Source: a virus
Length of the DNA stretch: 42,401 bases
Virus record (IMG/VR): IMGVR_UViG_3300004155_000002
Strand: one strand, 5' to 3'
The translations under genes were made by a program, and so were the position numbers. Each line of letters begins with the position of its first letter. The first letter of the stretch is position 1. Positions 7,005 through 40,629 of the stretch are shown here, one piece after another. The notes under the pieces are model-generated. The model saw nothing but the letters and a program-made list of their open reading frames with translations. It made no database searches and had not been told where the DNA came from.

Positions 7005-8914
7005 AAGCAGTTGAGGCCGCCCTTATGGCAAAAGCACGGGCGCTGGGGCCGAGACAAAAACAGCTTCGCCTCCCGCCTCCCCCGGCCGTGAAAATCCCGG
7101 TGGAATTGGAACGCCAATACTATAAAGATCTGCGAGCCGAGGTTGTGGCCCGCCTCGGCAGAATCACCGAGCGCATTCTCGTGCCCGCCCTCCCTTCCCT
7201 TCTCAGGGGAGCGCGGGAGGATCTGCCCACGGTTGACTCGGCGGACGCCCGGCGGCTTGACTCATACACTCGTGAGCTTGATGTGCTTATGAATGGGATG
7301 AGGATTGCCTACGCCACGGAATTGACGCCCGATGAAATCGAAGCCCTTGCAAGAAAATATGCGATCAGGGGCGAGAATTGGAACAAAACCGATCTCGCAA
7401 AATCCCTGCAGCGCGTCCTCGGGATCAACCCGCTTGTCGCCGAGCCTTATTTGCCGGCAGTCATGCGCCAGTTTATTGACGAGAACACTAACCTCATTCG
7501 CTCAATTGGTTCGGAATTCTTTGGAAAGATCCAGCAAGACACCTATAAATATATTCAAGAAGGCGTTTACAACAAGGAATACGCGAAGCAAATTAGCGCG
7601 GAATTCTCTGAGGAATTCAAGCGCCAATATGAGCGGGGCATTCTGAAGCGCCGGGTGACAAATGCCGACGCAAGGGCTCGCCTCATAGCTCGGGATCAGA
7701 TCTCAAAATACAACGGACAGTTGAACCAAACGCGGCAAACTGCACTCGGGATCACAAAATACCGTTGGGTGACCGTTGGGGATGATCGCGTCCGAGAATC
7801 ACACCGCTCAAAAAACGGCAAGATCTACTCATGGAACGATCCACCCGCCGATACGGGGCATCCGGGGGATGACTACCAATGTTTTCCGGCTGACACTTCA
7901 GTTGACCTTTGTTTTGATGCAATGAAAGGTTTCCGCCGTTGGTATGACGGAAAATTGGCCTTTATCGTCACGGATTCTGGTGAATCGGTCAGATGCACAC
8001 CTAATCACCCATTTCTCACCAACCGAGGATGGATTGCCGCAAAGGATCTCAAGGAAGGAGACTATCTCTTCAAGATTTCCCAAAAAACACTCGTCCCGTT
8101 GGAAGTCAATATTTACAAATGCAAAACCACGATTGACCACAAATTCAGACTTCTTGAAAAATTTGGGATTGGTCAAACGGCTAGCGGCACGCTTAGAGAC
8201 TTCCACGGCGATGGAACCGAAAACGAGATCGATGTTGTATCGGCCCAACGCAACCTGGTGGGAGGAATGAATTCCCTTCAAAGCCAGGGCCGCCATCAAT
8301 TCGGATTCTCCGAACCCGACTCTCCGGGAGCGGCTCGCAGCAATCTTTTCAACGGTCTCATTGCTCTTCTTTTTCCCTTTGCTCGCCTTGTGTGCCTTAT
8401 CAGTCAAGCTCATTCTTTCTTCCTTGGAAAGCCGAGCCATCCTGATAAAACCCGCCTCGCTTATGTCCCTAATAGTGACTCCATTACGCCGCAAAATTCT
8501 TCTAATCGGAGTCCTAGAAACCCCTACCTCGATACTGATCGCCAATTCGCTGACGCCAGCCTGATACATCGAAACGATCTTGGCCTGGTCGAGTTTGAGG
8601 GGGGAGCAATCCCTTCGGAATTTATTGATCCCAGGATTGATCCCGAATTCTCTCAGTTTCTCGCTCAGATTGCTGTAACAGACTCCCAACTTCTCGGCGA
8701 CTTCCTTCAGAGTAAGCCCTTCGGATATGAGCTTTGCCGCATATCTGAGGTTAGTTTCCGTGAATTTTCCGGCCATGTTTACAACCTCGAAACGAAAAAA
8801 GGATGGTTCATTGCCCAGGACTTTATCACGAAAAACTGTCGCTGTACATCCGTTGCCGTTTTCGACGAGGGAGTGACAGAAAACCCGACACTATTGGGCT
8901 TATTGAATTCGTGA
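7001..8914 (+). CDS. MuF / SPP1 gp7-type head morphogenesis protein, interrupted by an in-frame intein (7880-8836)
   Basis: ATG 7001 overlaps the portal stop (ATGA). MuF hallmarks WVTVGDDRVRESHRSKNGKIY...GHPGDDYQ are followed only after 319 inserted codons by the conserved CRCT. The track ORF begins at 6968. Confidence 0.85.
   Translation: MKAVEAALMAKARALGPRQKQLRLPPPPAVKIPVELERQYYKDLRAEVVARLGRITERILVPALPSLLRGAREDLPTVDSADARRLDSYTRELDVLMNGMRIAYATELTPDEIEALARKYAIRGENWNKTDLAKSLQRVLGINPLVAEPYLPAVMRQFIDENTNLIRSIGSEFFGKIQQDTYKYIQEGVYNKEYAKQISAEFSEEFKRQYERGILKRRVTNADARARLIARDQISKYNGQLNQTRQTALGITKYRWVTVGDDRVRESHRSKNGKIYSWNDPPADTGHPGDDYQCFPADTSVDLCFDAMKGFRRWYDGKLAFIVTDSGESVRCTPNHPFLTNRGWIAAKDLKEGDYLFKISQKTLVPLEVNIYKCKTTIDHKFRLLEKFGIGQTASGTLRDFHGDGTENEIDVVSAQRNLVGGMNSLQSQGRHQFGFSEPDSPGAARSNLFNGLIALLFPFARLVCLISQAHSFFLGKPSHPDKTRLAYVPNSDSITPQNSSNRSPRNPYLDTDRQFADASLIHRNDLGLVEFEGGAIPSEFIDPRIDPEFSQFLAQIAVTDSQLLGDFLQSKPFGYELCRISEVSFREFSGHVYNLETKKGWFIAQDFITKNCRCTSVAVFDEGVTENPTLLGLLNS
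7880..8836 (+). mobile_element. Intein (Hint-type, 319 codons) in the MuF gene
   Basis: N-terminal Cys1 block CFPADTSV, block B CTPNHPF (TxxH). C-terminal block GHVYNLETKKGWFIAQDFITKN is followed by the +1 Cys of CRC. Removal restores GHPGDDYQ-CRCT. Confidence 0.8.
7898..8776 (-). CDS. Homing-endonuclease-like protein (HTH + NUMOD3-like + DUF559/Vsr-like PD-(D/E)xK motifs), antisense and fully nested in the intein
   Basis: GAGG lies 8 nt upstream of the ATG. HTH-like LTLKEVAEKLGVCYSNLSEKL and GVSELAISIEVGVSRTPIRRILRRNG. NUMOD3-like KGKKKSNETVEKIAASRS. Nuclease-core-like GESELMAALALKGIHSSHQVALGRYNIDLVFGSIAVEV. Confidence 0.65.
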   Translation of the reverse strand: MAGKFTETNLRYAAKLISEGLTLKEVAEKLGVCYSNLSEKLREFGINPGINKFRRDCSPLKLDQAKIVSMYQAGVSELAISIEVGVSRTPIRRILRRNGVTIRDISEAGFIRMARLSKEERMSLTDKAHKASKGKKKSNETVEKIAASRSRRVGFGESELMAALALKGIHSSHQVALGRYNIDLVFGSIAVEVSKRAASRLTNPKFFKKSEFVVNRGFAFVNIDFQRDECFLGNLEEIVSFLEILCGNPSSVGEKWVIRCASDRFTRIRDDKGQFSVIPTAETFHCIKTKVN

Positions 8915-8940
8915 TAGGGTTGCCCTAGAATTAGTCTAGG

Positions 8941-10095
8941 GTGACAATCATGCGAAGAATACGTTTTGACAACGGCGAAATGGCGAGGCCAGAAAAGACC
9001 CTGCAAGGGTTTCTTCGGGCACCCTGTTTCGCAACGCGATCGGGTATTTTTATTTACAAAAATGATGACGGCAGCACGCGCCGGGAGCTTCGCCCTCCCG
9101 AGGAAGTGTTCTCCCCCGAAAGCCTGGCAACGCTCGCGGGCGTTCCCGTGACCGACGAACACCCGCCCGTTGCGGTGGACGCTTCCAATGCTCGGGAGTT
9201 TGCCCGAGGGTTCACAGGTGAAAGCGTCGAAGGCGAGAACAATTTCGTGAAAACCTCGGTGACAATCACCGATGCCGATTTGATTAAAGCGATAGAAAAC
9301 CGCGAAAAGGTTGAAACCTCGTGTGGGTATTCCTGCGATCTTGATGAGTCGCCGGGCGAATGGAACGGCGAGCGGTATGATGCAATACAAAAAAACATTC
9401 GATACAATCACCTTGCAGTTGTTTCGAGGGGCCGCGCTGGCCCGGCCGTTAGAATCCGTTTGGATGCCGGCGCTGCCGTGCAGACCGAGCAAAATCAGGA
9501 AGGGGTGTTTTGCATGACAAAGATCCGTGTTGATGGGATTGAATTGGAGGTGAGCGAGCCGGTTGCTTTGGCGCTCACTGCAAAATTCAAAAAGGACGAG
9601 GAAATGGGCACGGCTTCAGGTTCGAAAATGGCCGAGCTTCAAGCTGAAATTGACAACCTCAAGGGCATGCTCGCGTCAAAAGATATCGAAATGGACGCTT
9701 GCAAGAAGGATATTGAAGGCGTTAAAGCCGAAGCCGAAGCGAACAAAATGGACTCGGCAAAAATCCATTCACTCGTGATCGCCCGCGCCGACCTTTGCAA
9801 AAAAGCCGAGAAGTTTGTTGACACCGCAAAGGTGAAACTCGACGGCTTGACCGAGCGCGAAATCAAGGTCGAGACAATCAAGGCCAAGATGAATGACTTT
9901 GACGCAAAGGATCGCACGGACGCTTATATCGACGGACTGTTTGAAGGCATCGTTTCCGTGGCCCCCGCCGCGCGCAATGATGCATTGGCAACCACCGTGG
10001 CAGCCGTGAAAACAGACGGGGCCGCCCCGACTGCAGCCGACGCCCGCAAGCGATCAATGGAAGCCGACAGAAACGCCTACAAAGCAACCAAGTAA
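8941..10095 (+). CDS. Head scaffolding / prohead protease-like protein (DUF2213-like N-terminal domain plus coiled-coil C-terminal half)
   Basis: Position between MuF and capsid genes. N-terminal half resembles DUF2213 (RELRPPEEVF...VPVTDEHP...YNHLAVV). C-terminal half is K/E/A-rich coiled coil. Alternative ATG start at 8950. Confidence 0.6.
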   Translation: MTIMRRIRFDNGEMARPEKTLQGFLRAPCFATRSGIFIYKNDDGSTRRELRPPEEVFSPESLATLAGVPVTDEHPPVAVDASNAREFARGFTGESVEGENNFVKTSVTITDADLIKAIENREKVETSCGYSCDLDESPGEWNGERYDAIQKNIRYNHLAVVSRGRAGPAVRIRLDAGAAVQTEQNQEGVFCMTKIRVDGIELEVSEPVALALTAKFKKDEEMGTASGSKMAELQAEIDNLKGMLASKDIEMDACKKDIEGVKAEAEANKMDSAKIHSLVIARADLCKKAEKFVDTAKVKLDGLTEREIKVETIKAKMNDFDAKDRTDAYIDGLFEGIVSVAPAARNDALATTVAAVKTDGAAPTAADARKRSMEADRNAYKATK

Positions 10096-10139: not shown

Positions 10140-11159
10140 ATGCAGACCGGATACAGCCTGACTCAGGGAATTGCGGCCGAGGGTTCGCTCGGTGATCTGG
10201 ACAAACCATATGTGCGCTCGCACGTCAACGGCACCAGCGTCAAAAAGCGCTATACCATTTCGGTTGACGCCGCCGCCGACGAGGAATTGACCCTCACCCT
10301 TACCAGCCCTGCCGGCGTGGTGACAACGGTTGCCTATAATGAAGGTGCCGTGGGCACCGTGACCACAAAGCGAAACGGCCTCATTGCCGCTGTCAATGCT
10401 TCGGTTGCTCGCCTTTATTGCCGCGCGTCCGTCAAGGATGCCGATGAGCTTTACATCGAAAGCCTCGTGGCCGGCCAGGATTTCACGGTTGCCGAGGCCG
10501 AGGGGAACCTCACACTGACAAACGACACCGCCCTGGTTTCCAATTCCACCGTTGGCTTTGGCTTGGCCGTAGCTCAGGGGACACAGGATAACGAGTGCCG
10601 CTTGCTCGCCGCCACAACCGACCGCGTGATCGGTGTGACCCTGTTCTCTCATGCCGACAATATCAACAACGGTGTGGCCGGATATGCCGCACAATCCGCT
10701 GTGAATGTCCTTCGCCGTGGCACCGTTTGGGTTCGCCCCGAGACTTCCGTTGCCGCTGGCGATCCCGTGTTCGTTCGCGCCGTGGCCGCTGGTGCCGAGC
10801 GCGCTGGTGCATTCCGCAACGCCGTTGATAGCACCGATTGCATTGCTCTCGGCGCGTCGAAATTCCTCACTAGCGCTTCCGCTGGCGGGCTGGCGCTGGT
10901 CGAAATCAACCTTGCTCAGGCCCCCATGACGACCATTGCGCCCCTCGGTGCAACCGCTGCATTCACCCTCACCGCCCCCGTGGCCGTTGCGCTCAATGCC
11001 GCATTTTCGGATGTTGAGGTTGAGGCCGGATTCCTGGCGAAGGCTGATCAGGCTGCCGTGTCAACCCTCATGGGATTGATTGAGGGAAGAATGGACGGGG
11101 CCGAAGGAAAGATCGATGCAATTATTGCGGCCCTTCGCACGGCCGGACTGATGAACTGA
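10140..11159 (+). CDS. Head decoration / cement-like protein
   Basis: Lies immediately upstream of the capsid gene. The segment GTVWVRPETSVAAGDPVFVR...AGGLALVEINL resembles DUF2190-type decoration proteins, from memory. Confidence 0.45.
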   Translation: MQTGYSLTQGIAAEGSLGDLDKPYVRSHVNGTSVKKRYTISVDAAADEELTLTLTSPAGVVTTVAYNEGAVGTVTTKRNGLIAAVNASVARLYCRASVKDADELYIESLVAGQDFTVAEAEGNLTLTNDTALVSNSTVGFGLAVAQGTQDNECRLLAATTDRVIGVTLFSHADNINNGVAGYAAQSAVNVLRRGTVWVRPETSVAAGDPVFVRAVAAGAERAGAFRNAVDSTDCIALGASKFLTSASAGGLALVEINLAQAPMTTIAPLGATAAFTLTAPVAVALNAAFSDVEVEAGFLAKADQAAVSTLMGLIEGRMDGAEGKIDAIIAALRTAGLMN

Positions 11160-17449: not shown

Positions 17450-19480
17450 ATGGCCACAGTTCGGGAATTGGTTGTCAGTTTTGGTTTCGATGTGGACGAT
17501 GCCCCGCTACAAAAAATGGAGCGGGGACTTGAGGAAATCAAAACCGGATTGCTTGCCATTGGCGCGGCGGCAGTAGGTGCGGCGGCGAGCCTTTTTGGGA
17601 TTGCGAAAAGCACAGCTGACGCTGCCGCTGCCATAAAAAACACCTCAATTGCTCTCGGCGTCAACTATGACTCCCTGCAGCGCTTAGGGTACGCCGCTCA
17701 AATGAGTGGGGCCAGCCAGGAAATGCTGGCCGATGGCTTGCGCTTTTTGTCTCGTGCTGCCATGGATACCGCCGATTCAAACTCGGAAGCGTCAAAGGCG
17801 TTTCGGGCGCTCGGGATTTCCGCCAGGGACGCAAGCGGCAAGCTACGAGCCCCCGATGCATTGCTCGTGTCCATGGCCGACGCTTTCAAAAAGCTACCGC
17901 CAGGGGCCGAAAAGAGCGCCATGGCAATGCAGTTTTTTGGCCGCTCGGGCAATCAACTGGTGCAATTTCTGAACCAGGGATCGGACGGAATAAGAGCGCT
18001 CGGGGCCGAGGCCGAATCGCTCGGGTTCATCATGGACGAGGCAGCCGTTGAGGCGGGGGCCGCTTTTAACGATGAGCTTGATAGGCTTTCAGGCGTGGCG
18101 AAAGGCATCGCGCGAAGCATCGGCACGGGACTCATTCCCGTTATAATGGATCTCATGGTGGCCGTCCGGCAATGGATTTTGTCTAACAGGGAAATTCTGA
18201 AATCAAGAATTCAAGCATTTGTCGAAGTGTTGAGCAAATTCCTGCAGCAATTATGGCGCGTGTCCATGGCTGTTTGGCAGGTATTCCGCGCGCTGGTGAT
18301 CGCCATTGACTCGGTTGCGAAATCGGTGGGCGGGTTTACAACCGTGTTATCCGTCCTTGCCGGCGTTATGGGACTCTTCGCCCTCGGGCGTTTGGGCATG
18401 GCAATTTTCGACGTGGCGAAGGGTTTCATTGCCATTGGGCGCGCGGCCGTTATGGCCTGGCGCTCGGCATTGCTCGGGCCAGTTTTGATTGGGGCCGCCA
18501 TCGTAGCGGCGTTTTTGGTGATCGAAGATTTCATCGCATTCCTTGACGGCCGCCCCTCGGTGTTGGGTTTCCTTCTTAAAAACAAGGATCAGATTCTCGA
18601 AAAACTTTTTCGTTGGTTCGAACGCGCGAAAGAGATCGGATACAAAGCCATCCGCGCCCTCACCGTGGGCTTCCTCGAATTATTTGGCATTCCTCGCCAG
18701 GAAGCCGAGCGGGCGTTTGACTCGTTTGCTAATGCCGTTGATGGAGCGGTAGATCTCGCAATCGCCGCATTGGTGCCGCTGGGAGAGTTTCTTTTGGCCG
18801 GTATAGGGCAAGCGCTTGACGGGCTCATTTTGCTCGCTCAGGGCGTGGCTGAGGCGTTTGTGGCCATCGCCACAGATCCCCGCCAGGCGCTCACGGATTT
18901 CGCTGCAACAATAGGCGATGTGGTCAGGGGAGCCTTTCTTTCGCTCTTTGATGTGGCGGTCGCCCTCAAGGATCGGCTCATGGGGGCGCTCGCTGGAATT
19001 GGGGAGGCGATCCTTGGGGCGTTTTCCAAAATCAAGGATGTGCTCGCGGGCGCGGTGCAAGCCGTGGCCGATTCATTTTTGAGCATGCTCGGGGCCATCG
19101 GGGAGAAAATCCGGGGGGCCATAATCGATCCCGTGAAGGGTGCCGTTGCGGACGCTTTCGGTTTCCTTCGGGGGAAATTCGGAACCCTCGCGGCCCGCCT
19201 CGGGATCGATCTCGGCTCGCCCGAGGCCGACGCGCAAACAGCGCTCGCTCAGGTTGCCAGCGTTGCGAGCTCGCCCTTCCCTGGAATCACACCGGCCGCC
19301 ACGGTCGGCCCCTCCCCTGCAGGCGGGGCGGTGACAATGGAGTCAACGATCAACGTGACCGTTCCCCCCGGTACCGACGCGGCGGGAGTGGGCGAAGCGG
19401 TGCGGCAGGCAGCGGCCGAGGAATTCCAAAAAATCCTGCGACCGGCAGCGCGGGCCACGGTTCCCGGCGTATTCTATTAG
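17450..19480 (+). CDS. Tail tape measure protein
   Basis: 676 aa, Ala/Gly/Leu-rich with hydrophobic central segments. TP901-type core LGYAAQMSGASQEMLADGLRFL...FGRSGNQLVQFL. Confidence 0.88.
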   Translation: MATVRELVVSFGFDVDDAPLQKMERGLEEIKTGLLAIGAAAVGAAASLFGIAKSTADAAAAIKNTSIALGVNYDSLQRLGYAAQMSGASQEMLADGLRFLSRAAMDTADSNSEASKAFRALGISARDASGKLRAPDALLVSMADAFKKLPPGAEKSAMAMQFFGRSGNQLVQFLNQGSDGIRALGAEAESLGFIMDEAAVEAGAAFNDELDRLSGVAKGIARSIGTGLIPVIMDLMVAVRQWILSNREILKSRIQAFVEVLSKFLQQLWRVSMAVWQVFRALVIAIDSVAKSVGGFTTVLSVLAGVMGLFALGRLGMAIFDVAKGFIAIGRAAVMAWRSALLGPVLIGAAIVAAFLVIEDFIAFLDGRPSVLGFLLKNKDQILEKLFRWFERAKEIGYKAIRALTVGFLELFGIPRQEAERAFDSFANAVDGAVDLAIAALVPLGEFLLAGIGQALDGLILLAQGVAEAFVAIATDPRQALTDFAATIGDVVRGAFLSLFDVAVALKDRLMGALAGIGEAILGAFSKIKDVLAGAVQAVADSFLSMLGAIGEKIRGAIIDPVKGAVADAFGFLRGKFGTLAARLGIDLGSPEADAQTALAQVASVASSPFPGITPAATVGPSPAGGAVTMESTINVTVPPGTDAAGVGEAVRQAAAEEFQKILRPAARATVPGVFY

Positions 19481-24650: not shown

Positions 24651-27263
24651 ATGACGGAAATTGCGAAACCAGCGGAACGCCCACGGTGGGCATCGGATGT
24701 CTCGGCGGACGTGATAACACCTTCGAGTGGAAAGCAGGATACGGGCTGGGTTCAAGAATATCCACCCCTCCAATATTTCAATTGGCTCGGAAAATACACC
24801 CATGAATGGCTCAACTACCTCGAAAGAAATACCGATGCCAGTCTCGGCGGCGGCGGTCCGATTGCGGGCGTGGCAATCAATGTGGGCGTCATTCTCCCCA
24901 CTACGGGTATCACGCCAGTTGACACCGAAGGGCTGGCGGCGACGGACGATCTTGCCGCAATCAATCCTTCGAACCTCGCCGAAGGTCGGATCTGTCTCAT
25001 TCATTCGGTCAATGCGGCGCGAGTTATCACTGTCAAACACATGAGCGGTGCGATCACGGGCCAGATCAACCTTCGCCTCGGTGCCGATATTGTGTTGGAC
25101 GATCCCAAAAAAGTGCTAGTGCTGGTGCGAAACGGCACACAATGGGATGAGCTTTTCGGGTTCCTCGGCAGCGATCCCGCGCCTTATTTGTCGGCTGATC
25201 TCGACGTACAGACGAAGAAAATCACCACGACTACGGTTGACGGGGACGTGATCATTGAACCCAACGGCACGGGTTCACTCTCGCCCCTCACCACAGGCAA
25301 GGCCCTCGGAAAATCAGCGCAACGGTGGAATGCCTTTTTGTCGGGCGCAAACGTGGCTGGCGATATTTCCGCCGAGGCGGACGGCACCAGGGATCTCGGT
25401 GCAACGGGGACGCGCTGGCGCGCGCTGTACACCGACAAGGTTTATGCAACGGATTGGGTTCATACGGGATACCTCGACTGCGAAACGCTTGGGGACACCC
25501 TGAATATCGGCGCAACAAACGCCTCGCTTATAAACATCGGGCGAACCGGCGCAACCATTGCGCTGTATGGCTCGATCACCGAGGTTCACACAACCAACAC
25601 ATATGTGACCGACAAACTTCTCACCCTCAATGATGGCGGTCTCGCCACCAGCGGCGACGGCGCGGGCATCGAAATCGAAGAAGGCGGATCGGCAACCGCG
25701 TATATCAAGGTTTCCTCCAATCGAAACAAATGGAGTTTCAAGGCCCCCAATGACGCGGCCGTGGTCAGCATTGGGTCCGAGGCGGCGGTTGTCGGTGATA
25801 TCGGTTTGGTATCTTCCGTTTTAACCTTTATGAGTACGGGATTCTCTTTCAAAAATTCAGCGGGTACGGTGATTGCTAGCGCCGTTGACGCGGGAGGCTG
25901 GACATTTGGCCCGAGCGGATATGCCGGTGCCCACACGATCCGTGGAAAAAATATGGAGGCGGCGAACGCTTTTGATGCCGCTTTAATTGTGACCGGCCAG
26001 GGAACGGGAACCATTCCGGGAGTCATTAGGTTTGGGTTCAATGAGACAACGGGACGAGGCGTAATCCGTGGCTACCGAAATGCCACGGCTGCAGGTGGTT
26101 GCGAGTTTCATTCGGGCACTGCTAACGTGGGTTTTCATGATGAAAACGGCGCATGGACGTGGGGGCCTCCCTCAAATACTCCATACACCACATATCACAC
26201 TGTATCAAAAAGCATTTTTGCACAAACCTCGGCGACCGCAAATGACTCTGACGGTGCCATAAGAATTGGAGCAAATACCTACCATGCATCGGGGGCACCG
26301 AGCCGGAAAACCGGGATAGGCGGCGCGAGTATTGGATTTTTTCCGCGAACGACAGACACGGCAAACAGCCTTATATTCTACAATAACTTGGCGGCGGACG
26401 GGGATGTAGCGGCGGGCGTAAACGGATCTGTCACGCAGGTAGGATCTTGGATTCTTGGGGCAATCAACTCATATGGGTTCCATATGACACCCGGTGATTG
26501 CCCGAATCAGATCACGGCAGTTCTAGCAAACTGCCGTCCTTCTGGCGGTGCCGATGGCCGTAGCTTTTCAACAAGGGCTGGCGGAGGTATTTTATGCCTT
26601 GCCGCGCTTACAAATAGCGCAAATTGTATAGAATTCCACGCCAATCAGGACGATGATGGGGTTGATACCGACGCGGATTTAATCGGGTTCGCTTTGCCAA
26701 CAGGAGCGTTTACCTTCGGGCCGTCTGCCGGTGCCGATGTGCAACATGTGTTTTTCTCAAGCAAAGCGGGCACGGGCATCGGCGATGCATTTGTCAACCT
26801 CAGATCTACTGGATCAGCGTCTAATCAGAAGTATTTGCAGTTTCAGCATAGTTCAACTACGGCAGCCGGTGGCATTCAGAGAAATGGCACGGGTTCGGAT
26901 TGGGTTGCATTTAGCGGTTCGGATAGGCGAATCAAAAAAGAAATCACCCCGCTTGAGTCCCAATGGAATAAGGTCAAAAGCATCAAGCTGTGTCGGTATC
27001 AGTTCAAGTATGGCGGCGAAGGTATCGGCCCAATTGCTCAGGAATTGAACGAGATCTACCCTGAAAAGGTGAACAAGTACGATGATGGCGCTGGCGAGGA
27101 CGTTCCTAAAGGCGTGCAGCCGTGGGAAATCACGCACGGTTGGTCATATGAAACGCTATCCGTTGTTCAAGAGTTAATGGGAAGGTGTGAGAATTATGAT
27201 TCAACAATTCGTTCCCTTCAGAGCACGGTGTCAAATCTAATGGCAAGGCTAGGTGCGTGTTAG
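24651..27263 (+). CDS. Tail fibre protein with a C-terminal intramolecular chaperone auto-processing (Peptidase S74-like) domain
   Basis: 870 aa, Gly/Thr/Ala/Asn-rich. From about 26919: SDRRIKKEITPLESQWNKVKSIKLCRYQFKY...GIGPIAQELNEIYPEKV, then a coiled-coil tail. Confidence 0.8.
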   Translation: MTEIAKPAERPRWASDVSADVITPSSGKQDTGWVQEYPPLQYFNWLGKYTHEWLNYLERNTDASLGGGGPIAGVAINVGVILPTTGITPVDTEGLAATDDLAAINPSNLAEGRICLIHSVNAARVITVKHMSGAITGQINLRLGADIVLDDPKKVLVLVRNGTQWDELFGFLGSDPAPYLSADLDVQTKKITTTTVDGDVIIEPNGTGSLSPLTTGKALGKSAQRWNAFLSGANVAGDISAEADGTRDLGATGTRWRALYTDKVYATDWVHTGYLDCETLGDTLNIGATNASLINIGRTGATIALYGSITEVHTTNTYVTDKLLTLNDGGLATSGDGAGIEIEEGGSATAYIKVSSNRNKWSFKAPNDAAVVSIGSEAAVVGDIGLVSSVLTFMSTGFSFKNSAGTVIASAVDAGGWTFGPSGYAGAHTIRGKNMEAANAFDAALIVTGQGTGTIPGVIRFGFNETTGRGVIRGYRNATAAGGCEFHSGTANVGFHDENGAWTWGPPSNTPYTTYHTVSKSIFAQTSATANDSDGAIRIGANTYHASGAPSRKTGIGGASIGFFPRTTDTANSLIFYNNLAADGDVAAGVNGSVTQVGSWILGAINSYGFHMTPGDCPNQITAVLANCRPSGGADGRSFSTRAGGGILCLAALTNSANCIEFHANQDDDGVDTDADLIGFALPTGAFTFGPSAGADVQHVFFSSKAGTGIGDAFVNLRSTGSASNQKYLQFQHSSTTAAGGIQRNGTGSDWVAFSGSDRRIKKEITPLESQWNKVKSIKLCRYQFKYGGEGIGPIAQELNEIYPEKVNKYDDGAGEDVPKGVQPWEITHGWSYETLSVVQELMGRCENYDSTIRSLQSTVSNLMARLGAC

Positions 27264-27994: not shown

Positions 27995-29590
27995 ATGCCA
28001 ACAAATGAAGCCTCTAAGGCGCACTTATGTGACCTATTTAATTCGGTCGCGGTGCGCGAATCCAGAAAATCAGAAGTGAAATACTACACGGACAAGTGCA
28101 TTGAAAACCGCGCAAAATACGAGGCATCGGGCGCGCCCCTCGGGGTTCCCTGGTATGTGGTTGGCATCATTGACGCGCTTGAAAATACGTTCGGCAATGG
28201 CTGGCTTGCGAATGGTGATCCCTTGACCGGCCCCACGGTGCGGGTTCCAATTGGCCTCGGGCGTGGGGAGAATTTCCCGATCTCGTGGGCGCGTGGTGCC
28301 GAGCTTTCAATGAAAAAAGACAACCTGCACGAGATCGCCGATTGGAGTCTCGGCAATCTTTTGTGGAGGGTAATGCTTTACAATGGCGACGGGTACATCG
28401 CGCGGGGCGTGGAAACTCCCTACCTTTGGTCATTTTGCACTCACTACACCAAGGGGAAATACGTCAAGGACGGCCCCGAAGGCTGGGATGCAAATGCCGT
28501 TTCTGAGCAATGTGGGGCCGCTGTTATCCTCTGGGAAATGGAACGGCGGGGCGTGATTGCGATCCCTCGTTCGCCAGGGGCAACGCCCGCGCGGTCGCCC
28601 GAGAATGTCGGCTGGCACAAATTGCAATTGATTGTAAACAACGTGCCCGAAACCATCCCGGCCGGGTTTCCCAAAATTGAAATCGGATTTATTGCAAAAC
28701 TTGCGGGCACAAATGACGACTACCGGCGCGCTCGTGTTGAGCTTCCCTCCGAATTCGTCAAGGCGTGGTTTTCTCAGTTTCCCAACGCGCACGACATCCG
28801 ATTCACCGATGAGCAAACGAAATGGCCCGGCGACCTGGCGGGAGGGGACGCGCCCCCGGCCCCCGAGATCCCGTTGCCAATGCGCCAGGGCGCGGCCGGC
28901 GCGGGTGTTTCCCGCTTGCAGGTTGAACTCAACCGAGCCATGGGAACCGGCATAGCGGTTGACGGTGATTTTGGCCCGGAAACGCTCGGCAGCGTGCGCG
29001 CCGTGCAAGCCCGCCTCGGCCTTCCGGCTACGGGCGTTGTGGATCTCCCAACGTGGGACGGGCTCAAAAAACTGCCCACGGCCGAAGCAACGGGGTTCTC
29101 GCGCTCCCGGCTGGCGGCAATTATGCAAGCCGAAGCCAACCAGGAAAATACCTGGAACGGAAACGGGCGGGCCAAAAAATACACCAAAAAATTTGAAGGC
29201 GTTTTTGGGAGCGCCCGATTTGCCTGGTGTGCCGCGTGTGTCACTTGGTGTTGCGAGCAAGCGGGGGCCAGGATGCCGGTGAGCGCACCTGGAACCGGGT
29301 ACACTTTTGCATTGGTGGAAGCATGGCAGCAATGGGCAATCGCTCGCGGATTTTGGCATGACGGCACGGCCGGCATTGCTCGCGGTGACATCGTGATTTT
29401 TGACTGGGACGGGGCCGACTATCCCGACCGGGATCAGGAAGATCACATCGGCGTTGCGCTCGCGGGCGAATCGGGCGGCTCGGTGTTGTGTGGGGAGGGC
29501 AATGTGTCCGACTCGACTGCTACGAAAACCCGCGCGAAGTCTCTCATTCAAGGCTACGTTCGTTTACCGGACGGGTTTCCTGGAGCCTGA
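27995..29590 (+). CDS. Endolysin: lysozyme-family (COG5526-like) N-domain + PG_binding_1 + CHAP
   Basis: N-domain GVPWYVVGIIDALENTF...LANGDPLTGPT...YNGDGY...PYLWS. Middle LQVELNRAMGTGIAVDGDFGPETLGSVRAVQARLGLPATGVVD. C-terminal CHAP-like FAWCAACVTWC ... DHIGVAL. Confidence 0.85.
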   Translation: MPTNEASKAHLCDLFNSVAVRESRKSEVKYYTDKCIENRAKYEASGAPLGVPWYVVGIIDALENTFGNGWLANGDPLTGPTVRVPIGLGRGENFPISWARGAELSMKKDNLHEIADWSLGNLLWRVMLYNGDGYIARGVETPYLWSFCTHYTKGKYVKDGPEGWDANAVSEQCGAAVILWEMERRGVIAIPRSPGATPARSPENVGWHKLQLIVNNVPETIPAGFPKIEIGFIAKLAGTNDDYRRARVELPSEFVKAWFSQFPNAHDIRFTDEQTKWPGDLAGGDAPPAPEIPLPMRQGAAGAGVSRLQVELNRAMGTGIAVDGDFGPETLGSVRAVQARLGLPATGVVDLPTWDGLKKLPTAEATGFSRSRLAAIMQAEANQENTWNGNGRAKKYTKKFEGVFGSARFAWCAACVTWCCEQAGARMPVSAPGTGYTFALVEAWQQWAIARGFWHDGTAGIARGDIVIFDWDGADYPDRDQEDHIGVALAGESGGSVLCGEGNVSDSTATKTRAKSLIQGYVRLPDGFPGA

Positions 29591-36169: not shown

Positions 36170-37300
36170 TCAAAATGGTACTCGTGTGCAACCGCTTTCG
36201 CGGATCTTTTTCCTCAAGGCGTTACCCTCGCGGCGACTTTTCGTAACGCGATCTGCCATATCATCTGGGTTAATTCCCGATTCAAAATATGCGCGAAGCG
36301 CGTCAAAATTGCTCAAAATGGTATTCAGTCCGTGCACGGTTCGCACCTCAAATGCTCGCCTGGAAGTCGGATACCACGCTAGAAACTCGATCACATATTC
36401 GCGATCCGCGACATCCAAAAGCTGTTTGATATAGACGTTGTTCATTTTCCCGCGTGTGGGAGGTTTCCCATAGGTATGCTCCCATGCCTTAGCATAGGCG
36501 TTCCATGGCTCATTTGTGGGCGCTTCTTTTTTCGATGCTTCCTTTTGTGGCGGTGGTTGCTTTTGGCTCTTTTCCGCCCGCTGGCGATTTTTGGAAGGTC
36601 GTTTGGTGCCGGTGTCGCCTCCCTCCCCGTTTGATTCAACCTCGGGGCTCTTTCCCCCATTTTCCCCCGGTGCGAATGCGCCGGGGAGATCCGCCGCCGA
36701 AGGCGCGGCCGAGTGCGAGTGCGGATCGGGAAATGTATTTGAATTATTCTTATACATTTGATCTGATATTAATATGGACGGTTTTCGGGCGTCCCCCGAG
36801 ACGTCCCCCGAGACGTCCCCAGAGACGTCCCCAGAGACGTCCCCCGAGGCGTCCCCAGAGACGTCCCCCGAGGCGTCCCCCGAGACGTCCCCCGAGACGT
36901 CCCCCGAGGCGTCCCCCGAGACGTCCCCCGAGACGTCCTTGTTTTTCTTTTTTCTGAATTTCTCTTTTCTTTTCAGAGTTCTTTCGTGAGTGGCGAGACA
37001 CTTCCCGGTGTGTTCAAACCAGTCATGAATCACCATTTGCCCGGCCTCGTTCAGCACGATCCAGCCCCGCGAAATTAGTACCGCGAGAAATTTCTCGGGC
37101 TCGCCTTCCCAACGGGCGGCGTCCGCAATGTCGAGTGCCTCGGCTTCGGCTAGCACTCCGTCTGGTGCGTTCGTCCATGCCCACGCCCACAGCGAGGCGA
37201 GGTGTCCTACGAAATGCACCCCAGCGAGCCCCAGATCTCGGGCCGCTTTCCGTGTTTTCAGATTCCCAAAAATTTCGGTATTCACTTGCGCGTATGCCAT
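36170..37300 (-). CDS. Replisome-organiser / replication-initiator-like protein with a (GDVS/GDAS)n linker
   Basis: N-terminal domain HFVGHLASLWAWAWTNAPDGVL...FLAVLISRGWIVLNEAGQMVIHDWFEHTG resembles phage replisome-organiser N-domains, from memory. The central linker is encoded by the 12-bp tandem array. Confidence 0.55.
   Translation of the reverse strand: MAYAQVNTEIFGNLKTRKAARDLGLAGVHFVGHLASLWAWAWTNAPDGVLAEAEALDIADAARWEGEPEKFLAVLISRGWIVLNEAGQMVIHDWFEHTGKCLATHERTLKRKEKFRKKKNKDVSGDVSGDASGDVSGDVSGDASGDVSGDASGDVSGDVSGDVSGDVSGDARKPSILISDQMYKNNSNTFPDPHSHSAAPSAADLPGAFAPGENGGKSPEVESNGEGGDTGTKRPSKNRQRAEKSQKQPPPQKEASKKEAPTNEPWNAYAKAWEHTYGKPPTRGKMNNVYIKQLLDVADREYVIEFLAWYPTSRRAFEVRTVHGLNTILSNFDALRAYFESGINPDDMADRVTKSRREGNALRKKIRESGCTRVPF
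36788..36938. repeat. Tandem array of 12.6 copies of the 12-bp unit G(A/G)CGTCCCC(C/A)GA; iteron-like, candidate origin core
   Basis: Units counted base by base from 36788. Most units contain the palindrome GACGTC. Flanked by AT-rich 36733-36787 and T-rich 36939-36985. Confidence 0.9.
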
Positions 37301-39741: not shown

Positions 39742-40629
39742 TTAAAATCCCTTTCGTGGGTTGGTGAGCGGAAGCAATTCGGTCGGGTATCCGGGCCATT
39801 CCCCGGACAGTGTACACTCGGCATAAGTTTGCACGTTTTTAAGGTAGTGAGCACGGCCTACGTTCAGAAACTCGGGATCGGCAACGTATGCCGCCACGAG
39901 GTAGGGCGGCTCTTTCTCAACCGCGATGAATATGAATGCATCGGTTTTCTCCGCGCTGGCATCGGCGAGGCCATCGGAATAGCTCGCGGCCTGCACATGG
40001 TAGCGGTATTGATAGTAGCTCTTTTTCGGAAAATCTAACGGGTCGGCCGAAAGCGCGGTTTTCAGATCGACTATGATCCGCCCCCCATTGGGAGGGAAAA
40101 CGAGGCGATCCATGCGCCCTTTACAAAGCACGGGCGGGGTTTTGGGATCGATCTGGCTTGTCCACAGGGCGGTCAATTCCGCGTGCCCCGGCCATTCCCA
40201 AAACAACTGCCGGGCAAGCGGGTGTCTCCAAAGGGCCTCCCGCATGCGCTCAATTTGCTCATAGTCCTCACGGTTCAATGGCGTTGCGTTTCCTTTATTT
40301 TCCTCCCATTCTTTTTTCTTGGCCTTGCTCCCCTTGCCTTCGAACGTGGGGGCCACGCAAAAATCAACCTTGAATTCCTCGGGCGTGAGAATCGCGGAAT
40401 GGATTGCCCGGCCGAAGGTGAGGGCGCTTGTTTCCTCCCGATCCTCGGGGTGATCTTTCAGCCAGCGATATTTGGCCGGGGCCTCGTTTATTTTGTCGCA
40501 GTCGGACTTTGAAAGCCGACGCAAGGCGCGGTAGTCTGGATCGGGTAGATCTTCGACCACGCCAAAGAGCAAGCGGTCAAGCGGGTTGGGTGGGTGATAA
40601 TCCGGGATCACTAACATATGATCCTCCAT
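39742..40629 (-). CDS. PD-(D/E)xK exonuclease (RecE/Cas4-like fold), partner of RecT
   Basis: FGRAIHSAIL ... GRMDRLVF...IIVDLKT ... YRYHVQAASY gives a D..(D)LK + QxxxY arrangement. GGAGGA RBS. Confidence 0.75.
   Translation of the reverse strand: MEDHMLVIPDYHPPNPLDRLLFGVVEDLPDPDYRALRRLSKSDCDKINEAPAKYRWLKDHPEDREETSALTFGRAIHSAILTPEEFKVDFCVAPTFEGKGSKAKKKEWEENKGNATPLNREDYEQIERMREALWRHPLARQLFWEWPGHAELTALWTSQIDPKTPPVLCKGRMDRLVFPPNGGRIIVDLKTALSADPLDFPKKSYYQYRYHVQAASYSDGLADASAEKTDAFIFIAVEKEPPYLVAAYVADPEFLNVGRAHYLKNVQTYAECTLSGEWPGYPTELLPLTNPRKGF

Follow-up and report, generated by a model that had tools for sequence, protein, structure and literature searches.

The subject of this analysis is a stretch of 42,401 nucleotides from the IMG/VR virus record IMGVR_UViG_3300004155_000002 (hereafter the window, meaning the whole stretch), in which the gene of a MuF/SPP1-gp7 head-morphogenesis protein is interrupted by an in-frame intein, and the complementary strand of this intein carries a second, completely nested open reading frame (ORF). 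The insert at 7880-8836 is very probably a mobile intein in the MuF gene with a homing endonuclease gene of its own on the opposite strand. At both ends of the insert, which correspond to the two parts of the Hint splicing domain, it is the sense frame that is under selection, and in its middle it is the antisense frame. The features and their coordinates are collected in Table 1.

The intein and its host gene

The MuF ORF, whose predicted start overlaps the end of the portal gene by 37 nt, encodes a precursor in which the match to Phage_Mu_F and TIGR01641 covers residues 187-305. The insert of 957 nt (319 codons) begins with Cys1 (tgt, 7880-7882), ends with Asn319 (aac, 8834-8836) and is followed by a +1 Cys (tgt, 8837-8839). 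The junctions read ...DTGHPGDDYQ/CFPADTSVD...FIAQDFITKN/CRCTSVAV, placing the insert exactly at HPGDDYQ/CRC in the MuF gene. The initial annotation, made from the letters of the sequence alone, had already proposed an intein at the HPxxxxCRC signature of MuF, with the same boundaries, flanking residues and Hint hallmarks (Cys1, block B TPNH and the +1 Cys), and our results agree with it on each of these points. With the intein removed in silico, MuF scored 81.3 bits instead of 67.5 against Phage_Mu_F, and the match of the spliced MuF crossed the junction and reached profile position 110 of 112. In a tblastn search, 876 phage records were matched by the spliced C-terminal half of MuF. Two intein-free homologues that were aligned are ungapped across the junction (GHPGDDIQCRC and PGTDYRCRC) and carry nothing at the insertion position. 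The motif at this site in intein-free homologues, GHPGDD(I/Y)QCRC, is the most conserved one of MuF. The G+C content is 47.9% in the whole intein versus 54.9% in the N-extein; the hand counts of the initial annotation, 53+55 of 240 nucleotides inside the insert and 62 of 120 just upstream, proved exact, and the insert is modestly lower in G+C, as it had said.

Both ends of the insert match Hint profiles, with scores at or just above the curated cut-offs: TIGR01445 intein_Nterm gave 26.6 bits (cut-off 24.5), and PF14890 Intein_splicing gave 36.4 bits (cut-off 35.8) over residues 20-316 of the insert. The AlphaFold2 (AF2) model of the insert is confident at residues 1-70 and 281-319, and a Foldseek search of the PDB with it gave only intein or Hedgehog Hint domains among the 50 best matches (best E 1e-3). 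Between these parts, pLDDT (predicted local distance difference test score) ranges from about 41 to 83 per 10-residue block in a transition zone, stays below 50 throughout residues 128-255 of the linker, and is 22-36 at residues 131-250. The intein residues C1, T40, H43, H299, N302 and N319 are invariant in the alignment, block B being T40-P-N-H43. The terminal Asn, Cys1, TxxH and the +1 Cys are kept in divergent members, a few of which have Ser or Thr at the +1 position. The hallmarks, the profile matches, a predicted fold that resembles only inteins and the intein-free homologues together identify the insert as an intein. A self-splicing intron with an endonuclease gene was also considered and rejected; the host frame is uninterrupted, and the window as a whole yields no Rfam match at or above the gathering score of the family.

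The antisense gene and the strand under selection

The minus-strand ORF of 292 codons lies wholly within the insert, beginning inside block F and ending opposite block A. It is placed codon for codon on the sense frame in the '-1' register, in which position 2 faces position 2 and the antisense third position faces the sense first. Over the 957 nt of the insert, the sense frame contains 0 stops, compared with 4 and 27 in the two other frames of that strand; the antisense codon register has a single stop, that of the ORF itself, and the other two antisense frames have 14 and 24. Read on the opposite strand, the conserved sense motif DFHGDG..IDVV corresponds exactly to antisense YNIDL..VAVEV, and block B TPNHP to antisense WVIRC. 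All 13 homologous loci have both frames open, and the three loci found via the sense protein alone also have an intact antisense ORF. When IMG/VR was searched with the DNA pattern of block F, 88 stretches were obtained, in 85 of which the antisense ORF matches the endonuclease profile. The antisense ORF is complete in 76 members, with a length of 154-355 aa (median 290), and in none of the 76 is the sense frame interrupted within it.

A stop in the sense frame would require TTA, CTA or TCA in the antisense gene in this register, and the number expected was calculated from the Leu and Ser content of each antisense protein and the local codon usage. Where the genome is not G+C-rich, 6-12 sense stops are expected per locus, and the chance that a locus has none lies between 1e-3 and 1e-7; multiplied over the 13 loci, the probability is about 1e-40. 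One locus, L017 (ERZ28656000 scaffold_729; L numbers are our own locus labels), has zero TTA, CTA or TCA in about 1090 background codons, perhaps owing to a very high G+C content, and the stop-avoidance test is uninformative there. The composition of the window also changes over the element: in 8001-9000 the G+C skew is -0.094 and the A+T skew is about zero, the A+T skew is positive in both flanking kilobases, and the G+C skew is positive in the kilobase that follows. This shift is the strand-composition trace of the antisense gene.

The strand under selection was read from a codon alignment of 13 inteins (the window, nine loci found via the antisense protein and three via the sense intein), with nucleotide identity taken by sense codon position. 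At residues 1-60, identity is 0.52 at position 1 and 0.35 at position 3 (p=4e-6), the pattern of a sense gene; at residues 61-113 the values are 0.40 and 0.39 (p=0.8), with no preference for either strand. The relation is reversed at residues 114-283, where identity is 0.32 at position 1 and 0.44 at position 3 (p=8e-10), the pattern of an antisense gene, and it returns to the sense pattern at residues 284-319 (0.53 and 0.41, p=0.002). The same switch is seen at shallow divergence, among five Jerseyvirus copies with 78-96% nucleotide identity. In their Hint-N part (columns 1-60), sense positions 1, 2 and 3 have 17, 6 and 26 variable sites, and the 35 variable codons alter the sense residue in 17 cases and the antisense residue in 26. 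Columns 61-110 have 20, 5 and 17 variable sites, with the sense residue altered in 23 and the antisense residue in 19 of 29 variable codons. In the middle (columns 111-236; 78, 15 and 36 variable sites), 81 of 89 variable codons alter the sense residue and 36 alter the antisense residue, and in Hint-C (the last 36 columns; 5, 2 and 15 variable sites) the counts are 7 and 16 of 19. According to the codon-position tests at both depths, the antisense product is under protein-level selection. The initial annotation had read the 319 codons as one in-frame protein; its intein stands, and the single sense protein does not, about residues 114-283 being selected on the opposite strand.

The start of the antisense gene is embedded in block F. 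The His codon of the motif G-H-V-Y-N-L-E has the antisense ATG as its complement in all 13 loci, and GAGG, GGAG or AAGG, the complement of the Asn/Thr-Leu codons, is found about 7-14 nt upstream of this ATG. Among 95 distinct ORFs of IMG/VR, the block-F His is CAT in 82 (86%) and CAC, which gives a GTG start, in the rest; CAT is used at 43% of the other His codons of the same ORFs (p=2.5e-17) and at 20% of the block B His (p=1e-18). The block-F Leu, which yields RAGG on the antisense strand when it is CTC or CTT (CTY), has one of these two codons in 48 of 64 members versus 44% elsewhere (p=1.4e-6); the test is weak for CTC alone (35% versus 24%, p=0.03) and clear only for CTY. Such selection among synonymous codons would be difficult to account for if the ATG in block F did not serve as the translation start of the antisense ORF.

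The putative endonuclease, its spread and alternative readings

Four homologues of the antisense protein are 33-36% identical to it, in alignments that span 85-96% of its length (lowest E 6e-33). The AF2 model of the antisense protein (mean pLDDT 77.7, from only five sequences) has two three-helix helix-turn-helix (HTH) units, a helical linker and a core of alpha-beta-beta-beta-alpha-beta topology. In Foldseek, the HTH part matches the tandem-HTH protein Cbp1 (2lvs) and the core matches the endonuclease-like NGO0050 (3hrl; template modelling score 0.72 normalised to the target, E 1e-2). The HTH families that the protein matches (HTH_23, HTH_7, Cbp1-like) are unrelated to MuF or inteins. A PDB search with the window protein alone gave matches at the level of the HTH only, and the link to nucleases needed a profile of nine divergent members, which matches the catalytic domain of I-Bth0305I (3r3p, E 0.0022) and 3hrl (E 0.003). 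E157 and the VAVEI strand are aligned in the 3r3p match, and no H-D pair is conserved in the nine-member alignment. Six of the nine members, the window protein not among them, match the restriction-endonuclease-like family MTES_1575 of Pfam, and E157, Q174, D183 and E192 are invariant in all nine, including the window. By these weak similarities, the antisense protein is most likely a Vsr/EDxHD-like nuclease with HTH modules that would read sequence, and since this is the make-up expected of a homing endonuclease, we consider it a putative one. A shorter form of about 230-250 aa with one HTH is encoded in inteins of 266-272 aa (L015 2480-3178, L016-L018 and L110, from Pseudomonas, Salmonella and metagenomes); together with forms of up to 355 aa in IMG/VR, it means that the number of DNA-binding modules varies in the family.

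The element is widespread. The antisense protein matches 117 GenBank phage records in tblastn, with hosts including Salmonella (63), Pseudomonas (15), Gordonia (11) and Klebsiella (8), as well as Acinetobacter, Edwardsiella, Aggregatibacter/Haemophilus, Vibrio, Cronobacter and Pantoea. Among the matches listed, the underlying coding sequences (CDSs) that bear a functional name are head-morphogenesis or minor capsid products, and the others are called 'hypothetical protein' or are unannotated, with one ADP-ribosyltransferase label. At five of the five loci inspected in detail, the match lies antisense within the MuF CDS. An exhaustive profile search of 1.84 billion representatives gave 986 protein clusters (50% identity, E<=1e-30), most of them 270-305 aa long and matching from residue 1, and at least 139 IMG/VR contigs carry an intein with an antisense endonuclease. 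On homologue contigs the antisense gene sits between the portal and scaffold-like genes, on the other strand and at the expected place of MuF, and a MuF-like ORF on the opposite strand reads through it, with junctions ...N/CF(P/T)G... and ...N/CRC. In metagenome gene calls the antisense ORF was called and MuF omitted, leaving a gap beside the portal gene (L001 4890-6731, L003 4884-6599, L009 1819-3636); in GenBank phages (L011-L015) the annotation is confined to MuF and in no case includes the antisense ORF. Gene callers consequently lose either an essential head gene or a mobile-element gene from the annotation.

Presence of the element is sporadic in the Guernseyvirinae. The spliced MuF junction of the Salmonella phage LSPA1 matches 410 records of this subfamily, most of them in a single piece and thus intein-free (such as Jersey, SETP3, SS3e and K1ind1), and a minority (LSPA1, UPWr_S3, S55, nctD30) has about 816 nt inserted at this site; such a distribution is the one expected from homing or from repeated precise loss. 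The same intein, with its endonuclease ORF on the antisense strand, also occurs in portal-MuF fusions of more than 1000 aa (L040 3002-6205, L058 2373-5417) and in the uracil-DNA-glycosylase (UDG) domain of fusions of UDG with DNA polymerase A (UDG-PolA; L060 2275-5658, L084 4869-8378), where the junction reads ..SN/CCRP... For the window itself, no nucleotide match was found in the phage collection, the antisense protein has no close relative in IMG/VR, and the species genomes contain one distant, intein-free relative of its MuF.

A different, canonical-looking intein (..HVYNLEVE..GILVHN/CHH) shares the DNA pattern of block F and was found in L116, L119, L121 and L122 (ORFs of 914 aa), L109 and L125. 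The antisense ORF of this group is only 37-63 codons long and has no match to the endonuclease profile; the group may serve as a natural contrast.

Building on the anatomy, the homology and the strand selected in each part, which are demonstrated, we propose the following mechanism. MuF would be translated as a 648-aa precursor, in which the ends of the insert (about residues 1-70 and 283-319) would fold into the Hint domain and the middle, about 150 residues, would form a disordered loop whose sole requirement is the lack of a stop codon. We infer splicing by Cys1, the +1 Cys and cyclisation of Asn319, which would yield a MuF of 329 aa with the HPGDDYQ-CRC motif restored. On the other strand, the antisense ORF would start at the complement of the block-F His, with GAGG supplied by the complement of Asn-Leu, and would encode the two HTH units and the Vsr/EDxHD-like nuclease. 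This protein would cut intein-free MuF alleles in co-infection, and recombinational repair would then copy the entire element, that is, homing would take place.

Several observations weigh against this mechanism, and some of them point to specific alternatives. One is that the Hint domain no longer splices and the insert stays in the mature MuF as a tolerated surface loop, with the endonuclease gene as a free-rider. The penultimate His is absent from the window intein (Lys318 instead; the family has K, H, R or S there), block F reads VYNLE with an invariant Asn where Asp (VYDL) is usual, and PF14890 is barely above its cut-off; an in-frame, non-splicing insertion with an out-of-frame HNH gene has a precedent in the ShiLan insertion (PMC11855218). 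Without the penultimate His and the block-F Asp, splicing competence is deduced from conservation. Both residues are frequent, yet they are not required of every intein, and natural DnaE inteins splice efficiently without the penultimate His. Loss of splicing is also hard to reconcile with the catalytic residues retained in divergent members, with purifying selection on the sense frame at both Hint ends, with a predicted fold that matches inteins and with the interruption of the most conserved MuF motif, and we regard it as distinctly improbable. A second alternative accepts the architecture and holds that the antisense protein of the window is no active homing enzyme, being a relic or co-opted, for example as an HTH DNA-binding regulator. 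The nuclease assignment depends on a nine-member profile with E of about 2e-3, a Foldseek match with E 1e-2 and invariant acidic residues, and the AF2 models were built on shallow alignments of five to six sequences. Alone, the window protein matches no nuclease family in Pfam or NCBIfam; the Lys of (D/E)xK is not conserved (the window has VEVSKR), nor is the H-D of EDxHD. Bearing on the proposed mechanism as a whole, a scan for the sigma-70 consensus over 7700-9200, including 8776-9200, found no minus-strand promoter, which is not proof of absence, and an antisense transcript would oppose transcription of the late operon. No close relative of the window phage, with or without the intein, was found in the searched collections, so that recent homing is not demonstrable for the window copy, and the preprint discussed below (bioRxiv 10.1101/2025.01.02.630785) notes vertical inheritance in some VSR-type groups. 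Set against an inactive enzyme are the four invariant residues E157, Q174, D183 and E192, the alternation of presence and absence at one Jerseyvirus site, the movement of the element between host genes and the intact ORF, for a relic would soon gain stops and complete ORFs are present in 76 of 76 complete members. We consider an inactive or co-opted protein unlikely, though not far-fetched.

The two remaining alternatives concern the architecture itself. If the antisense ORF were a chance shadow of a real in-frame sense domain (a novel endonuclease or a linker) in a canonical intein, one would understand why the sense frame is open throughout, why the match of PHROG 15127 'head protein' extends over the entire sense insert (E 1e-46), and why annotators of cultured phages call the sense gene only. 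The conserved motif DFHGDG..IDVV, which could be taken as a further sign of a sense domain, is exactly what the complement of the antisense strand YNIDL..VAVEV gives. The sense middle is predicted to be disordered and, apart from its own copies, matches no family; for the antisense protein there are matches to independent HTH families and to a nuclease fold, and the block-F His codon is biased toward ATG on its strand. The decisive evidence comes from the codon-position tests, in which the wobble of residues 114-283 falls on the antisense third position and changes in the Jerseyvirus middle mostly spare the antisense residue; they rule out a shadow ORF, which we hold to be very improbable. A 'fractured' gene, in which a split intein, together with a free-standing endonuclease gene, lies between two halves of MuF as described by Dassa et al. 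(2009), would account for the Vsr-like type of endonuclease, which occurs in fractured loci. Such a gene is ruled out by the continuous sense frame, which is stop-free from 6968 to 8914 and likewise in all homologues, and the endonuclease gene, encoded by the other strand, does not extend beyond the coding sequence of the intein; the probability of a fractured gene is practically negligible.

Beyond the mobile intein with an antisense endonuclease, we put forward, with slightly less than even confidence, that the intein and the antisense gene are an inseparable unit. The start signal in block F would be kept by synonymous-codon selection, the nuclease core would lie opposite structured parts of the Hint domain, about 150 sense codons would need only to be stop-free, and the unit would be abundant (about 1000 clusters at 50% identity; phages of Proteobacteria and Actinobacteria; MuF, portal-MuF and UDG-PolA genes). 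These points were not found in the available text of the preprint or in the other literature searched. Antisense overlaps of about 290 codons with both strands open are among the longest known in phages, and the family provides many independent copies for studying how overlaps arise and persist. As the '-1' register needs only TTA, CTA and TCA to be avoided, a free-standing endonuclease gene could settle backwards in an intein with the host gene unbroken, which is an alternative to the 'fractured gene' or split-intein route. The family could also offer compact inteins that tolerate a large disordered insert, and Vsr-like endonucleases with a known expected target, the MuF HPxxxxN/CRC coding site.

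The window is a segment of a tailed-phage genome, in which no tRNA genes were found, and its other assigned genes are listed in Table 1. The portal ORF has 643 aa, and its Phage_portal_3 match is limited to residues 45-395; about 250 further residues include a proline run (PPPPVDLPPPPPP) and a C-terminal domain without family match. Directly after the MuF stop, a 7-bp inverted repeat (CCCTAGA-attag-TCTAGGG, 8923-8941) reaches into the GTG with which the next ORF begins (8941); the real start of that ORF may be the ATG at 8950 with AGGGTGA upstream. A 12-nt tandem repeat (CGTCCCCCGAGA) of 12.4 copies with 92% match is located at 36790-36938, in the minus-strand ORF 36170-37300, where it would encode a repeated tetrapeptide.

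Table 1. Features of the element and of the surrounding window
Feature	Position	Strand	Details
MuF/SPP1-gp7 head-morphogenesis precursor CDS, 648 aa, predicted start	6968..8914	+	ORF; Pfam Phage_Mu_F E 2e-18, TIGR01641 phageSPP1_gp7 E 7e-17
N-extein, ends ...GHPGDDYQ	6968..7879	+	contiguous with C-extein in intein-free homologues
Intein, 319 codons, class 1 type (Cys1...Asn319, +1 Cys)	7880..8836	+
C-extein (CRCTSVAV...LLNS) and stop codon	8837..8914	+
N-terminal Hint splicing region, residues 1-70 (block A CFPADTSV, block B TPNHP, N4 KEGDYLF)	7880..8089	+	AF2 pLDDT 76-92; sense-frame selection p=4e-6
Transition zone, sense residues 71-127, including DFHGDG..IDVV, opposite the putative nuclease catalytic core	8090..8260	+	no clear strand preference
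Sense-frame linker, residues 128-282, stop-free, predicted disordered	8261..8725	+	antisense-frame selection
C-terminal Hint splicing region, residues 283-319 (block F GHVYNLET, block G ..ITKN)	8726..8836	+	pLDDT 79-92; sense selection p=0.002
Antisense ORF, 292 aa, putative homing endonuclease	7898..8776	-	codon-for-codon '-1' register; stop 7898-7900
Antisense ATG start, complement of His299 CAT, block F	8774..8776	-	same position in 13/13 loci
Shine-Dalgarno-like GAGG, 8 nt upstream of the antisense ATG	8785..8788	-	complement of Asn-Leu codons aac ctc
First HTH motif, aa 7-43 (helices 7-18, 23-30, 34-43)	8648..8758	-	AF2; Cbp1-like profile matches
Second HTH motif, aa 64-97	8486..8587	-	Pfam HTH_23 E 4e-7, HTH_7; Sleeping Beauty PAI subdomain profile E 5e-4
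Vsr/EDxHD-like nuclease core, aa 154-250; invariant E157, Q174, D183, E192	8027..8317	-	topology, Foldseek, profile matches
Large terminase	3627-5069
Portal	5073-7004
DUF2213 scaffold-like protein	8941-10095
Cement protein	10140-11159
Possible tape-measure protein	17450-19480		weak PhageMin_Tail (minor-tail-protein) match, below Pfam cut-off
Tail fibre with S74 chaperone domain	24651-27263
Endolysin	27995-29590
PD-(D/E)XK exonuclease	39742-40629

Comparison with known systems

In the fractured genes of Dassa et al. (2009, PMC2677866), a Vsr-like or GIY-YIG endonuclease gene lies between the halves of a split intein, in the same orientation, and breaks the host gene. They resemble the window in having a Vsr-like endonuclease between the N- and C-terminal splicing blocks in a phage setting, and share with it the idea of a free-standing endonuclease gene that invades an intein. 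However, they need trans-splicing, whereas the host frame of the window is continuous and its putative endonuclease gene is antisense and fully overlapped. The ShiLan insertion (Arsenault et al. 2025, PMC11855218) sits in frame in phage DNA methylases and conceals an out-of-frame HNH gene; as in the window, the host frame stays open over the overlapping endonuclease gene, but there is no splicing domain, and the HNH gene is on the same strand in a different frame.

The putative nuclease core shows weak but consistent similarity in profile and fold to I-Bth0305I (Taylor et al. 2011, PMC3239194; 3r3p), to 3hrl and to MTES_1575. E157 and the VAVE(I/V) strand of the antisense protein are aligned with I-Bth0305I and Vsr/DUF559-like nucleases. 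Unlike the window protein, I-Bth0305I is encoded in a group I intron, and the similarity is marginal (E about 2e-3), without a conserved H-D pair.

Antisense LAGLIDADG genes in inteins were reported by Gorbalenya (1998) and Gogarten (2002), as cited in the preprint bioRxiv 10.1101/2025.01.02.630785. In the Synechocystis DnaX and Chloroflexus SpoVR-like inteins, compared here by description, the endonuclease lies opposite a continuous intein frame as in the window; the endonuclease is of the LAGLIDADG type in contrast to the Vsr/EDxHD-like type with HTH predicted for the window, and the host genes are different.

The closest precedent is this preprint itself, by Gosselin, Arsenault and Gogarten (January 2025; version of October 2025), on inteins with endonucleases encoded outside the intein frame. 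Its table lists the inteins of Vivi2 gp14, Angelicage, Affeca, Fosterous and Malisha as 'minor capsid, MuF-like, class 1, VSR -1 ORF'. MuF had seemed a less familiar site for an intein to the initial annotation, an impression which this table corrects, as does GenBank PQ141284, already labelled 'minor head protein with inserted intein'. The antisense ORF of the window matches Vivi2 (E 2e-26), Fosterous (E 5e-25), Angelicage (E 5e-20) and Malisha (E 2e-19) in tblastn, each under the MuF gene. The actinophage inteins and that of the window share the host family (IPR006528 / SPP1 gp7 / MuF), class 1, the -1 register and a Vsr-like endonuclease with a long helical N-terminal part, the identity to the window ORF being 29-31% in the tblastn matches of the five phages named, Affeca included. 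Unlike in those phages, the nearest relatives of the window's antisense ORF come from metagenomes and phages of Gram-negative bacteria. Judged from its sequence, the window element is a new, non-actinophage example of this recently described architecture. The preprint surveyed PhagesDB only and calls the architecture rare, whereas 117 GenBank phages, at least 139 IMG/VR contigs and about 1000 protein clusters were found here; a start codon, a ribosome-binding site and a promoter are not mentioned in its available text. Measured against this text, four points appear to be additions: the abundance of the architecture outside actinophages, the codon-position evidence that the selected strand switches along the insert, the start signal embedded in block F under synonymous-codon selection, and the sense frame that is open in every complete member examined.

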